Origin: a virus
Taxonomy: Duplodnaviria; Caudoviricetes
IMG/VR virus record: IMGVR_UViG_3300028591_000084
DNA length: 64,000 nt
Strand: one strand, 5' to 3'
Shown here: piece after piece, positions 32,922 to 36,752 of the stretch
How the letters are laid out: the number at the start of each line of letters is the position of its first letter
How positions within the stretch are numbered: position 1 is the first letter of the stretch
The notes under the pieces: model-generated
The model's database searches: none
Told to the model about the DNA's origin: nothing
What the model saw: the letters and a program-made list of their open reading frames with translations, nothing else
Translations under genes and position numbers: made by a program

Positions 32922-34265
32922 TTAGAAGGGAGCCTCTGAACTACCAGATCCACCAAACCCACTAGCAAAAGAGGGTTGAGTGAACGGTGCCTTTCTTACT
33001 TCTTGGCTCTTCTGTTGTTGTTGACCGCCATTATCTGGAGCCATAGGAGCGCCAGAAATAGGATCAAGATGACTAGCTGCTGGGTTCTGGAAGGGATTCG
33101 TATTATTTTCTACGATCCTTTGACTATTCTCGTTGGTTACGAAGTTATTTCCTCCACCGAAACCTCCAGCCCAAGAACCTTGACCCTGCTGTTGCATAGC
33201 TTCACGAGCCATATCAGCGAGAATTGGGTCATTTGTCTCTACACCACCAGCATTAGTGGGCTTCTGATGAGCCAATACTGTTTGATTAGTAGCTTCAATT
33301 GCTTCTTCAATACTTGTTCCGCTTTCCTTAGCCAGTCTCGTTTTAGCAAGAATATTTGTCATATAATCAATAGCCTCACGAATTAGATTTCTATTGAAAA
33401 GACGAGCCTGATCGGCAGGAACATCATCATCCTCTCTATTAGCTTGCCAACCGAGGAACAGTTTTACAGGATTTTGCATGATTTGAGCATCTTCCTCTGG
33501 AATTACTACATCCTTGAGATATTGGCCAGCATTAAGAGAGTGTTGAACAGAGATACTAAAGCCCGGAGAGTCTGACTTACTAATACTGAAAATCAGAAAT
33601 CCCTTACGACCGGATAGCTCTCTGTTGTAGATGTCGTTAACCCATTCAGAATCACCCATACCACTGGTCAAGTTAATATCAGAAATATTATTACCAATAA
33701 TATCGGGGAATCCTTTACTAGTTACTACAAGAAGACCACTAAAGTTCTGCCTAATAGGATTGCGAGAATCACCAAGACCCCAATAATTCAATACACGGGC
33801 CATAACTAGGGTGTAACACTTTCTACGAATCAAACCACCAATAGTTGGATCCATAGCTTTATTTCTCACATCAAGTTCCTTATACAACTCTTCATAAATC
33901 TGATAAGCTTGATCAAGTAACTCTTCATCAGCAGCTGTAAGGCTAGAAACCTCACGGCCGGTTGAAGGATCCTTAATTGTATAAGCACTCTTAGGCAAAA
34001 GTTTGATCCAGGCAGAATAAGTCTGCTCTGTTCCATCACTCATCACATTTCGACGGGGCATCTTAATCTCTCTCGTATTCTGGAGGACAACGAAAGGAAA
34101 ATCGTTAATCACACTAGTCAACGGGAGGAGCTGATACTTGCCAAAATTGCTTTTTGCATTAGTAAAAATAGTCTCCACTGTACGACGCTTCACAAACTGT
34201 TTCTTCTGTTTTGTAGGTGAAATTGTCTGAAGTTTTTCCAAAAACGAATCTACATTCTGAATCAT
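32922..34265 (-). CDS. putative single-stranded DNA-binding protein
   Basis: Replication context; G/Q-rich disordered tail ending EAPF like SSB tails. Confidence 0.45.
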   Translation of the reverse strand: MIQNVDSFLEKLQTISPTKQKKQFVKRRTVETIFTNAKSNFGKYQLLPLTSVINDFPFVVLQNTREIKMPRRNVMSDGTEQTYSAWIKLLPKSAYTIKDPSTGREVSSLTAADEELLDQAYQIYEELYKELDVRNKAMDPTIGGLIRRKCYTLVMARVLNYWGLGDSRNPIRQNFSGLLVVTSKGFPDIIGNNISDINLTSGMGDSEWVNDIYNRELSGRKGFLIFSISKSDSPGFSISVQHSLNAGQYLKDVVIPEEDAQIMQNPVKLFLGWQANREDDDVPADQARLFNRNLIREAIDYMTNILAKTRLAKESGTSIEEAIEATNQTVLAHQKPTNAGGVETNDPILADMAREAMQQQGQGSWAGGFGGGNNFVTNENSQRIVENNTNPFQNPAASHLDPISGAPMAPDNGGQQQQKSQEVRKAPFTQPSFASGFGGSGSSEAPF

Positions 34266-34454
34266 AATTAAATAAATAAAATAAATTAAATAATATAAAT
34301 AAATAAATTAATCACTAGTGAGGGAAACTTAATCTTCCCTCAATAATAAGAATTTAAGGGGACGTTAGGTAACTTTTTTACATTTCAGAAAGAAAAATTG
34401 AGAAAGCAATATTATACTTTCTCTGTTTGATTTTTGACGAGATTTCAAGGGAAG

Positions 34455-34805
34455 TAAAAAAAAAAGGTCCAGGATTTTACTCCTAGACCTAAAACACTCA
34501 ACTAAGCAGCCTTGACGATGAGGCCGAGGGTACAACTGCAAAACCTCTACACTGGTTTGTGTACGTCGTTGAACCAAGGATTTTATCTATCTTTGATCTT
34601 TCGTCTTTCATCTTTGATAATAAAAATCTTTGATCTTTGATCTTTTCATCTTTGAACTTTCAGCTTTAAGGTAAAATTACATCTGAAACATATGGAATGT
34701 AACAAATCTAACTATTAATTCCGCTTAGTTTAATCCTAATAAGAAATCTACCTTTTTAGCCTCTAGTAGAAAGAGAGCGTTATTTTTAGCCTCTTTCGCT
34801 TAGTA
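34455..34805 (-). ncRNA. structured RNA with ten 7-nt periodic AAAG repeats
   Basis: Closing stem ACTAAGC/GCTTAGT, repeats 34591-34667, terminator 34457-34490. Confidence 0.6.
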
Positions 34806-34812
34806 AATATTT

Positions 34813-35436
34813 TTATATCTCAATTTTTGTGGTGCTATTGCTTTCTGACAGGGCATAGTCAATATTAGAGTTGAAATCCTCAATATACTCTTCCAGATCC
34901 TTGATCATCTTGTTAATATTGCAGGGATCAACCATAGCCACCTCCTTGCTCTTTTCAATATACCTTTCAGCCTCCTCTTTTGCGGCGGCCTTATTTTTAT
35001 CGCTGGTGGCGTCTATTCCACTTATCAGTCTCTCTACTTGAAGGTCATTCTCCCTCAAGGCTTTGTCAAAATCCTCAGTAGCACTCAAAGCTTGTGCCTT
35101 TAGCTTCTTGAGAATCATCATCTTGTATTCGATGAGATTCTTCTTGTTCAGGGCTTCCTGAATAGTCATCTCCTCGTTACAGACTGTTATTGTCGTAATG
35201 CTATTTGACTTATCAATAGCACACTTTATGGCATTGATCCTCTCATAAAGATCCATAACGCTTTGATATCTTTCCTTAGCTTGAGAGATGAAATCCTCCT
35301 TCTTAATTGAAGAATAAGGACTTCTCAGCTTAGTACCATGAGATACAGCAACGATGTTCATATCGTTCACTTCTTTTGTAACTCTCGCTTTTAACAGTTT
35401 CAACTCTGCTAATGCTCTAGTAATTGTTAGTTCCAT
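34813..35436 (-). CDS. DIP1984-like coiled-coil protein
   Basis: TITRALAELKLL, MTIQEAL, IDYALSESN..T.IEI pattern. Confidence 0.65.
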   Translation of the reverse strand: MELTITRALAELKLLKARVTKEVNDMNIVAVSHGTKLRSPYSSIKKEDFISQAKERYQSVMDLYERINAIKCAIDKSNSITTITVCNEEMTIQEALNKKNLIEYKMMILKKLKAQALSATEDFDKALRENDLQVERLISGIDATSDKNKAAAKEEAERYIEKSKEVAMVDPCNINKMIKDLEEYIEDFNSNIDYALSESNSTTKIEI

Positions 35437-35476
35437 AAACTTTAAAAAATTAATTAATATCTTTAATATAAGTTTG

Positions 35477-35547
35477 TTGGGCCAGGAGGAGTCGAACCCC
35501 CATCCTTAGAGCCAAATTCTAATGTAATTCCGTTATACCATGGTCCA
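35477..35547 (-). tRNA. tRNA-Gln(TTG); CCA not encoded
   Basis: Acceptor TGGACCA/TGGCCCA, anticodon arm TTAGA-ATTTGGC-TCTAA, T loop GGTTCGACTCC. Confidence 0.85.
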
Positions 35548-36107: not shown

Positions 36108-36752
36108 TTATTCTTCGTTTCTGAGATCTCTAAGTCTGAAATATCTATCTACACTATGATTATGAGTAATGTCATGAACATCATATTCTTTCGAATTATC
36201 TCGATCATAGGAAATAATAAAATCTTCAAAATGAACATAAGAGTCTCTCAAAACTTTCTTCAATGTTTCATTCTCTACATACTTCGAACTAGTACCTGGC
36301 TCAACTTCAGCCAAAGTAAGATGTGGCGTATAAGTAGGAAATTTTGATTTAATCTTGTAATACTCCGATAAGGATTTATTTAATTTACTCATTGAAGTAT
36401 ACCAAAAGTTATCATGTTTCAATTTCAAAACTACATAACCACTATCATTTTCAAAATTATCAAGTTCAAATAGATCAAGCACGGGGACAGCATTTTCCTC
36501 AAAACTCTTCTGTCTCTCTAGGTAATCAAATATAGATTCTTTGACAGGAGGATTTGATTTCCACCAACACTTATCAATAGTATCAAAAATATCACCTTTC
36601 TCTAGGAACTTATCAGCAGCATAAAGAACTGTGATATGAGAATCAAACTCAATTCCAGTATCCTTCAGATCAATTTCATCAAAAATAACATTAAGAGATA
36701 CTGGAGTTTCTAAATTCGCTGCTAGCATTAAACAAGAAGTTATACTTTCCAT
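36108..36752 (-). CDS. 2H phosphoesterase, Acb1/T4 gp57B-like
   Basis: Two HxT motifs, SHITVLY and PHLTLA. Confidence 0.75.
   Translation of the reverse strand: MESITSCLMLAANLETPVSLNVIFDEIDLKDTGIEFDSHITVLYAADKFLEKGDIFDTIDKCWWKSNPPVKESIFDYLERQKSFEENAVPVLDLFELDNFENDSGYVVLKLKHDNFWYTSMSKLNKSLSEYYKIKSKFPTYTPHLTLAEVEPGTSSKYVENETLKKVLRDSYVHFEDFIISYDRDNSKEYDVHDITHNHSVDRYFRLRDLRNEE

Follow-up and report, generated by a model that had tools for sequence, protein, structure and literature searches.

We analysed a 64,000-nt stretch of DNA from a virus (Duplodnaviria; Caudoviricetes; IMG/VR virus record IMGVR_UViG_3300028591_000084), which as a whole is referred to as the window, and focused on a protein gene on its minus strand that is followed by a structured non-coding RNA (ncRNA) with evenly spaced seven-nucleotide repeats (heptads). 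In the order of transcription, the locus comprises the following features, all on the minus strand:

35476-35547: tRNA-Gln(UUG) gene, detected by ARAGORN and by the Rfam tRNA model (49.8 bits), 40 nt upstream of the protein gene
34813-35436: open reading frame (ORF) for a 207-aa helical protein, member of phrog_1491 by profile match, homologue of T5.085/T5p083, with a DIP1984 fold
34501-34805: structured ncRNA core of 305 nt, bounded by the two arms of its closing helix P1, defined by an alignment of relatives (A2, see below), RNAalifold and pair counts
34456-34490: intrinsic terminator directly after P1, with a 10-bp stem containing 5 G-C pairs and a run of ten T

Only 7 nt separate the stop codon of the 207-aa gene from the start of the RNA. 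The terminator hairpin lies at 34490-34465, its T-run reaching 34456, and a hairpin with T-run also ends the RNA in close relatives (loci L006, L007, L009 and L010) and in the Brevibacillus loci. An initial annotation, made from the letters of the window alone, had placed a terminator downstream of the repeat tract and a tRNA-Gln upstream of the unit, and both are borne out. The tRNA gene is context only; tRNAs flank the module in many related loci, and in relatives the module usually lies among phage tRNA genes.

The repeat was initially described as AAAG on the minus strand (CTTT on the plus strand), at 34591, 34598, 34605, 34612, 34628, 34635, 34642, 34650, 34657 and 34664, and all ten positions proved exact on re-checking. 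The spaced triplet AAAG-N3-AAAG-N3-AAAG occurs five times in the 64 kb, four of them in the tract, against 0.04 expected from dinucleotide-preserving shuffles, and Tandem Repeats Finder (TRF) reports a period-7 array at 34589-34660. The segment 34450-34735 (286 nt) folds more stably than 200 shuffled versions (z = -4.0). A blastn search of the region against deposited phages gave no match.

Gene and RNA are linked in both directions

Scanning viral contigs with the single protein returned nothing, while a family alignment as query succeeded and yielded a viral set of 80 loci around homologous genes. In most of these 80 loci, AAAG on the strand of the gene is densest 100-250 nt beyond the stop codon. 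We then used a simple finder, which picked out a 7-20 bp closing helix that has GAAA on its 5′ side and GGCUG on its 3′ side and encloses 240-370 nt. By script or by eye, this helix (P1) with its GAAA/GGCUG flanks was located in nearly all 80 viral loci, with entirely different helix sequences; the loci missed by the finder have the same plan with variant anchors, or have it a few hundred bases further downstream. In three loci (L021, L038 and L232), the RNA lies 300-500 nt downstream of the gene. The same plan was found in 42 loci from bacterial genomes, many of them Bacillales chromosomes. Taking viral contigs and bacterial genomes together, about 120 homologous loci were inspected, and nearly all contain the pair of gene and RNA, always with the gene first and the RNA second. 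The expectation, raised initially, that the same periodic tract and stem would recur downstream of homologous genes thus met with a strongly positive result.

The reverse search started from the RNA. A 16-letter RNA motif run against viral contigs gave at least 120 matching stretches, from which 80 loci were analysed. Among these, ten matches had the other features of the RNA, and all ten had the gene 230-321 nt upstream. The near-invariant GAUAAAAUCC motif of the RNA (see below) recovers true RNAs as a sole probe. The 61 gene-less matches with enough upstream sequence had neither a correctly spaced GGCUG nor the combination of features, and we therefore regard them as chance hits. When all ORFs of 53 non-redundant loci were clustered, no second gene proved common across lineages, so that the conserved unit consists of exactly one gene and one RNA. 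Gene and RNA are linked in both directions, and no other gene is linked to them.

The pair occurs in T5-like, rV5-like, Bacillus and jumbo phages as well as in Bacillales chromosomes, and the hosts span Bacteroidota, Bacillota, Proteobacteria and, apparently, those of actinobacteria-like GC-rich phages. The module was also encountered on two contigs binned as archaeal metagenome-assembled genomes (L216 and L227; Bathyarchaeia and Methanosarcinales). These copies are likely mis-binned phage or bacterial DNA, given that the layout of L216 is nearly identical to that of the Brevibacillus copies.

The RNA is structured and specific to the strand of the gene

To describe the RNA we relied on alignment A2, which holds 34 diverse RNAs (the window's copy and 33 relatives). 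RNAalifold found compensatory changes in 18 of the 21 predicted pairs. When the pairs of P1, P3 and stem 1 of a pseudoknot are counted together, 94.4% of alignment cells are paired, compared to 60.3% in column shuffles and 34-47% with slid partners. G-U accounts for 47 cells of P1 and P3, non-standard combinations for at most 20. Since the G-U cells would be A-C mismatches on the other strand, and since the terminator is read on the same strand as the gene, the functional strand is that of the gene. The RNA is real, strand-specific and structured. Its elements in the window, again 5′ to 3′ on the minus strand, are:

34798-34804: P1 5′ arm ACUAAGC, followed by the conserved junction GAAA (34794-34797), from the P1 search and covariation
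34789-34793: P2 5′ arm GAGGC, with its partner GCCUC at 34520-34524; P2 crosses P3 and so makes a pseudoknot
34779-34784: AAUAAC, with a predicted partner GUUGU/GUUAU in the 14-nt loop of P5 (34530-34543), from a per-sequence duplex search
34747-34777: H-type pseudoknot, stem 1 CUCU (34774-34777) with AGAG (34761-34764), loop UCUAC (34766-34770) with GUAGA (34747-34751)
34670-34746: variable region with lineage-specific length and hairpins (A2 columns 100-250, poorly aligned)
34626-34669: heptad block 1, with six U-Y-A-A-A-G-N units here, including one spaced at 8 nt (column logo)
34590-34617: heptad block 2, four units in fixed register (column logo)
34575-34587: near-invariant GAUAAAAUCC leading into the P3 5′ arm CCUUG (34575-34579), whose partner CAAGG lies at 34510-34514 (A2 columns 476-487)
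34526-34562: hairpins of the 3′ domain, P4 (ACAC 34559-34562 with GUGU 34549-34552) and P5 (GAGG 34544-34547 with CCUC 34526-34529, loop UUUUGCAGUUGUAC), from RNAalifold on seven close relatives
34501-34511: conserved GGCUG (34507-34511) leading into the P1 3′ arm GCUUAGU (34501-34507), from A2

P1 has 14 aligned pairs, of which 13 show compensatory changes; P1 helped to set the sequence ends, which makes its statistics partly circular, and P3 is independent of that choice. The five pairs of P3 are formed in 97.6% of cells and three of them covary, which sustains the CCTTG/CAAGG helix of the initial annotation. The closing stem ACTAAGC/GCTTAGT proposed there is likewise a real helix, but the wrong 5′ copy had been chosen (34722-34728). 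Comparison with the 33 relatives identifies the conserved P1 5′ arm as the upstream ACTAAGC copy at 34798-34804 with GAAA after it, so that the RNA starts about 78 nt further 5′ than first thought. Two further helices of the proposed GC-rich domain were abandoned: neither GTACA/TGTAC nor CAAACC/GGTTTTG is kept in relatives, which instead have the local hairpins P4 (ACAC/GUGU) and P5 (GAGG/CCUC), the latter with a conserved 14-nt loop. Across A2, this part of the RNA holds one or two such hairpins.

P2 starts right after the GAAA junction, and its partner segment lies just before the 3′ arm of P3. Judged by eye and unscored, P2 seems to be kept in all seven members of the window's clade through altered sequences (e.g., GCGGC/GCCGC, GUGGCU/AGCCAC and ACACU/AGUGU). 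An equivalent pairing was seen by eye in the wider family, in a register too variable for a formal count. The H-type pseudoknot is found family-wide as a C-rich/G-rich stem followed by GGUUAA, with a second stem whose sequence differs between lineages. Stem 1 is paired in 81% of cells with all three pairs covarying, and stem 2 was better than shuffles (p<0.05) in 15 of the 30 RNAs tested singly. Duplexes between the P5 loop and the 5′ domain often recur at the same two sites, as in CUUUAACC/GGUUAAA, CUUCAAUC/GAUUGAA and, in T5, AUCUUAC/GUAAGAU; compared with shuffles the signal is weak (mean z -0.7). From these recurring complementary stretches we infer that the P5 loop pairs with the segment just 5′ of the pseudoknot.

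Several observations concern the variable region. A second copy of ACUAAGCG lies within it at 34722-34729 (minus strand) and could pair with the P1 3′ arm at 11 of 12 positions. Judging by this complementarity, the closing helix might have an alternative form, built with the second ACUAAGCG copy, that leaves the 5′ pseudoknot domain outside; this would allow a conformational switch. Another duplicated sequence is GAGGCUAAAAA, with copies near 34793 and 34763. In two relatives (L068:3197-3271 and L084:3213-3287), the variable region holds whole tRNA or tRNA-like genes between the pseudoknot and the heptads, and excising them would yield two RNA pieces joined by P1 and P2. Seven of the 34 RNAs (L009, L029, L037, L045, L068, L078 and L008) carry there a hairpin with the 7-nt loop CYUGAAA or GUUGAAA. 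It resembles an anticodon arm and displays the letters U-N-A-A-A as the heptads do; present in 7 of 34 RNAs only, the CYUGAAA-loop hairpin was rejected as a feature of the family.

The heptads are conserved in letters, number and register

The column counts of A2 give the repeated unit as U (97%), Y, A (100%), A, A, G, N. The 7-nt repeat described initially is therefore real, but the conserved unit is U-Y-A-A-A-G-N and not AAAG alone. Block 1 comprises seven units in 29 of the 34 aligned RNAs and six in the window's clade, which gives totals of 7+4 in the family and 6+4 in the window. Across the family, the autocorrelation peaks at lags of 7, 14 and 21. The blocks are nearly free of insertions and deletions, although the partner proteins are only 30-55% identical to that of the window, and a GC-rich relative (L072) retains the period with units of the CUCAGGA type. 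RNAalifold predicted no conserved pairs inside the tract. With letters, number and register conserved rather than pairing, the tract looks like a repeated recognition site. Among 20 distinct T5-like RNAs, changes concentrate in the variable region, and the free heptad letters show no hypervariability. Short direct repeats with a GATC core are present in the window's copy, and these cores are not conserved in relatives.

The protein is a distant relative of DIP1984

The 207-aa protein matches phrog_1491 over the full length of the profile (residues 2-207 on positions 4-209 of 211; E 6.3e-51). One search returned 327 homologues and an exhaustive search 3464 clusters at 50% identity, almost all of 205-215 aa. 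The protein is encoded by 694 deposited phage genomes, including T5-like, rV5-like, Bastille-like Bacillus, Vibrio, Pseudomonas and Erwinia phages; its homologue in T5 is named T5.085/T5p083. Most records call the protein hypothetical, and phrog_1491 is labeled "tail fiber protein". That label looks unsafe and was apparently copied from record to record, considering that the gene lies in early/tRNA regions and that the fold is DIP1984-like.

No Pfam family scored above threshold for the 207-aa protein. The AlphaFold model (pLDDT 91) shows a long helical bundle with a small sheet. Among solved structures, the DIP1984 protein from Corynebacterium diphtheriae (3kdq) comes closest to it (VIA-align Z 11.6, root-mean-square deviation 6.9, 150 of 152 residues), compared to Z 7.6 for the next unrelated match. 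Foldseek also ranks 3kdq first (E 0.017). At the level of sequence, the NCBIfam model for DIP1984 (NF038048) reached 19.9 bits against a cut-off of 70 (E 6e-4; residues 51-120 only), Pfam PF20935 (DUF6847) did not match the 207-aa protein, and hhalign against nine DUF6847 proteins gave a probability of 19% (E 1.2e-3). The designation "DIP1984-like" in the initial annotation thus holds for the fold but not for membership in the family. On the modeled structure, we consider the phage protein a distant relative of DIP1984 and not a member by the curated rule.

Modeled in four copies, the protein associated with itself at an ipSAE of 0.56 against 0.00 for the best control, a passing score. In calibration, 20 of 30 proteins with a solved paired structure and 1 of 23 with a solved single-chain structure attained the mark; with four copies and an author-built alignment, these counts apply only roughly here. 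Separate runs share at least 93% of contacts, and the pLDDT of the partners is at least 81. Going by these models, the protein probably self-associates, with the same residues on both chains forming the interface. The conserved residues outside the interface, which include R7, K13, R18, R66, K99 and a C-terminal LSESN motif and of which several are basic, cluster at the N-terminus, in the β-hairpin and at the LSESN motif.

Cellular DIP1984/DUF6847 genes have an RNA of their own

True DUF6847/DIP1984 genes are present in 19 of 301 sampled genomes of the class of Brevibacillus fortis. In Bacilli, such genes are followed, about 20-230 nt downstream, by a conserved structured RNA of their own (L249-L261; e.g., L250:1967-2160). 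This cellular RNA is 190-205 nt long; its elements are two helices (the closing one and a covarying long-range one), a GGUYAA pseudoknot and often a T-arm-like GGUUCRAnYCC hairpin. Its 3′ tail, GUGAGGGYGGG..GGGG, can pair with the C-rich strand of the pseudoknot. The RNA has no match in Rfam, and no other conserved neighboring gene was found beside the cellular DUF6847 genes.

The two branches share the fold, the motif [ST]-N ... T-[IL]-x-[ED]-A and a downstream RNA with a GGUYAA pseudoknot and a closing helix. They differ in that the phage protein is about 55 residues longer, and the cellular RNA is shorter, lacks heptads and ends in a G-rich tail. That a single fold has two distant branches, both of them coupled to an RNA of their own, makes a physical partnership of protein and RNA likelier. 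The comparison suggests that the ancestral contact of the protein was with the RNA core, in which case the heptads and the approximately 55 additional residues would have been acquired later, and together, in the phage branch.

The module differs from known protein-RNA systems

The models of Rfam 15, including ROOL, GOLLD, YrlA/Y RNA, tmRNA, 6S and ToxI, matched the window at gathering threshold only with tRNA. A permissive Rfam scan of 34300-34900 gave a snoRNA as the best hit, at 21 bits against a threshold of 44, and an Rfam scan of twenty related loci found tRNAs only. In the literature we found no description of the RNA or of a function for T5.085/T5p083, DIP1984 or DUF6847, although a large catalogue of candidate structured phage RNAs (PMC10690425) may list the RNA. 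None of 440 T5-like records has an RNA feature on the stretch, and a few sampled records have hypothetical-protein calls there. The record of phage DT57C (L269; KM979354.1 26408-31627) annotates five "stable RNAs with unknown functions" (RNAI, RNAIII, RNA2H, RNA3 and the 636-nt RNAX). The heptad RNA is not among these five, which lie nearby in the tRNA region.

Evenly spaced short single-stranded repeats are read by the TRAP oligomer, which recognizes 11 (G/U)AG triplets, and by HutP, which recognizes UAG-N4 units with a 7-nt period in two blocks; the heptad RNA likewise has 11 units, a 7-nt period and two blocks. Unlike the heptad array, which belongs to a stand-alone pseudoknotted RNA 3′ of its own gene, the trp and hut sites are cis leaders that control termination in host operons. 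The folds of TRAP and HutP are unrelated to that of DIP1984, and the modeled interface of the phage protein fits a dimer better than a ring. In the operator of T4 gene 32, a 5′ pseudoknot precedes unstructured UUAAA/UAAA repeats, which gp32 coats cooperatively with a site of about 7 nt. The operator thus shares with the heptad RNA a pseudoknot followed by A/U-rich repeats at about the 7-nt site size of a protein. It differs as a 5′ leader that represses translation and is bound by an OB-fold single-strand-binding protein, whereas the heptad RNA lies 3′ of its gene, has long-range helices and has a non-OB partner. TRAP, HutP and the gene 32 operator are functional analogies and not relatives.

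The closest precedent in layout is VIPR, in which a phage protein of RAMP/RRM fold multimerizes on the 5-nt tandem repeats of an adjacent ncRNA to form a ribonucleoprotein (RNP) (10.64898/2026.04.26.720920). The vrRNAs are about 100 nt long, with 9-16 YNNGG units whose NN letters are hypervariable guide letters (10.64898/2026.04.26.720920). Both systems are minimal phage-encoded loci with a protein, an adjacent ncRNA, short tandem units with a constant motif and a pseudoknotted structured part. The RNP, demonstrated for VIPR, is here deduced from the arrangement of the module. The phage protein studied here is all-helical with 3kdq as its best structural match, in contrast to the RAMP/RRM fold of Vipr, and its RNA has 7-nt UYAAAGN instead of 5-nt YNNGG units, a length of about 300 instead of about 100 nt and free letters that are not hypervariable.

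ROOL and GOLLD are phage-borne RNAs that form RNA-only complexes according to cryo-EM (cryo-electron microscopy; PMC12286853). Like the heptad RNA, they are large, intricate, found in phages and prophages and often located beside tRNA genes; they are cages of 580-800 nt without a dedicated protein, in contrast to the RNA described here with about 300 nt and strict pairing with one gene. The heptad RNA matches the ROOL and GOLLD models neither in sequence nor in structure. Type III toxin-antitoxin systems (ToxIN-like) have repeat units of about 34-36 nt upstream of an endoribonuclease toxin gene, as opposed to the 7-nt units downstream of the gene here. The position of the RNA, the size of the unit and the lack of a ToxN/Kid-like fold in the protein do not fit this assignment.

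For T5-like phages, the tRNA-rich region has been described as an anti-defence island, and both tRNA-targeting defences and phage tRNA counter-measures have been documented for T5 (10.1101/2023.03.15.532788). In T5, T5.085 lies about 4 kb from T5.076, a homologue of Rad. Identity of the phage protein with Rad, the anti-retron protein of T5-like phages, was rejected, as Rad is a 189-aa primase/TOPRIM-like protein that corresponds to T5.076. The F7 ORF pair that blocks Retron Ec83 is likewise situated on the other side of Rad.

A candidate ribonucleoprotein of defined size

The designation as an uncharacterised protein-ncRNA system, given initially, is well supported by these comparisons for the genomic module, through forward and reverse linkage and the absence of an Rfam family. 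The module looks like an undescribed protein-RNA particle, for which we found no matching curated RNA or protein family or paper. We propose the following mechanism. The gene of the 207-aa DIP1984-fold protein and the approximately 305-nt RNA behind it would be co-transcribed, with the transcript ending at the intrinsic terminator. The RNA core (P1, P2, P3, the H-type pseudoknot and the contact between loop and 5′ domain) would be compact and multiply pseudoknotted and would present the heptads as a long strand, conserved mostly in sequence. The protein would be seated on this array at the fixed register of 7 nt, and the fixed number of units would set the stoichiometry and thereby yield a particle of defined size. 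This particle may then act in trans during infection as an accessory factor. Physical binding, the use of the heptads as binding sites, the stoichiometry and the biological role are what we infer from these features. VIPR provides the precedent of a phage protein that multimerizes on short tandem repeats of an adjacent ncRNA (10.64898/2026.04.26.720920). Taken as a whole, an RNP with a self-associating protein seated on the heptads in defined stoichiometry and acting in trans is a reading to which we give an even chance.

Several results weigh against it. The Pfam scan did not find a recognized RNA-binding domain in the 207-aa protein, which is mildly acidic (median pI 5.7, net charge -2). The modeled interface is symmetric and suggests a dimer rather than a ring or filament, so that a ring with one protomer per repeat unit, as proposed initially, is not implied. 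The cellular DUF6847 RNA lacks heptads, and the link between protein and RNA need not run through them. Folding of single sequences, which is uninformative at this point, gives the tract a pairing probability of 0.5-0.6, and by these models the tract may not be fully single-stranded.

The heptads might instead be a sponge or decoy for another partner, such as a host or phage single-strand-binding factor with a site of about 7 nt, ribosomal protein S1 or an RNase, while the adjacent protein folds, processes or stabilizes the RNA, for example through the core. The core-like elements in the heptad-free cellular RNAs, which make an ancestral contact with the core probable, fit this explanation, as does the acidity of the protein, and the T4 gene 32 operator pairs a pseudoknot with UUAAA/UAAA repeats for gp32 at about 7 nt. 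However, the hosts are so diverse, from Bacteroidota, Bacillota and Proteobacteria to, apparently, those of actinobacteria-like GC-rich phages, that a host partner would need to be universal, no second phage gene is linked to the module, and the gain of the heptads is paralleled by the approximately 55 extra residues of the phage protein; we hold a decoy to be rather unlikely. Less likely still is a cis element in the 3′ untranslated region, an operator through which the protein would autoregulate the stability or translation of its own mRNA. The distance of 7 nt from the stop codon, the shared transcript and the invariant order of gene and RNA would suit such an operator, whereas known 3′ operators need far less than a multiply pseudoknotted fold of about 300 nt and 11 conserved repeats, and the RNA can lie 300-500 nt away from the gene (the three loci above). 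If the embedded tRNAs in L068 and L084 are processed out, as we would expect, the RNA would moreover be severed from the mRNA. Closing helices as long as 12-20 bp suggest that the RNA is excised as a separate molecule.

A function of the RNA by itself has a similarly slight chance, either through ornate self-assembly as in ROOL and GOLLD, or with heptads that mimic anticodon loops of tRNAs and distract a tRNA-directed host nuclease or modification enzyme. The phage-borne ROOL and GOLLD are indeed RNA-only by cryo-EM (PMC12286853), and T5 is a documented target of tRNA-directed defences with tRNA-based counter-measures (10.1101/2023.03.15.532788). The module resides in tRNA clusters, both RNA branches carry insertions of whole tRNAs or T-arm-like hairpins at the same site, 7 of 34 RNAs have the CYUGAAA-loop hairpin, and U-N-A-A-A matches U33-N34-A35-A36-A37 of tRNAs that read UUN codons. 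Yet this match comprises five letters only, with G instead of A at position 38, and the heptads are contiguous and stemless, while anticodon nucleases generally read a stem-loop; an RNA-only function would also leave the strict linkage to the protein unexplained. A programmable, non-contiguous guide as in the vrRNAs, with the protein holding the constant letters and the variable letters reading a target, would agree with the VIPR-like layout of phage protein, adjacent ncRNA with 9-16 short repeats and pseudoknotted constant part (10.64898/2026.04.26.720920). We consider it very improbable and have set it aside for the lack of hypervariability in the heptad letters among the 20 distinct T5-like RNAs; each heptad offers only one or two free letters, and the protein is not of RAMP/RRM fold. 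Almost no credence is left for repeats that act as DNA, i.e., origin iterons or sites of a DNA-binding protein, with no functional RNA. The GATC-cored direct repeats in the window's copy and the replication genes nearby would be in line with this, but the cores are not conserved in relatives, the long-range helices are maintained by compensatory changes, a covariation that already contradicts the idea, the G-U pairs are frequent on the strand of the gene only, and the terminator follows on that strand.

For an RNP seated on the heptads, the likeliest role would be in host takeover at the level of RNA or tRNA, or in counter-defence. The tRNA-rich setting, the tRNAs embedded in L068 and L084 and the location in a deletable T5 region with anti-defence genes point in this direction. 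A bolder version would make the DIP1984 fold an unrecognized superfamily of RNA-partnered proteins, every branch of which has a pseudoknotted RNA of its own, with the phage branch, thousands of lineages that include T5, using an 11-unit "ruler" to build a particle of fixed stoichiometry that neutralizes RNA- or tRNA-directed defence or rewires translation. We regard this version as speculative and doubtful; if true, it would define a new class of phage RNP.

If the pairing of gene and RNA reflects a real particle, it would be a new and very widespread phage RNP, considering the 3464 protein clusters, the 694 genomes and the 440 T5-like records with the RNA unannotated. T5, a classic model phage for which knock-outs, pull-downs and structures are routine, also carries the module. 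DIP1984/DUF6847, with a crystal structure since 2009 and no known role, would gain a first functional handle as a family that works with an adjacent structured RNA. With its fixed 7-nt register and unit number, the heptad array would be a rare, clean case of an RNA seemingly built to count or space protein subunits. The proximity to the tRNA-rich anti-defence island of T5-like phages makes the module a concrete candidate for a counter-defence or host-takeover activity that is so far unexplained.

Neighboring genes

Two neighboring ORFs on the minus strand of the window deserve mention. A 214-aa ORF at 36108-36752, near the tRNA gene, has weak matches to the 2H phosphoesterase / 2′-5′ RNA ligase superfamily (Pfam E 0.004; phrog_755 "RNA ligase" E 2e-6), which makes it a possible RNA-repair gene beside the module. 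Just past the terminator of the RNA lies a 447-aa ORF (32922-34265) that has no Pfam or PHROG match. Its C-terminus forms a Gly/Ser-rich tail with an acidic aromatic tip, reminiscent of the tails of single-strand-binding proteins.

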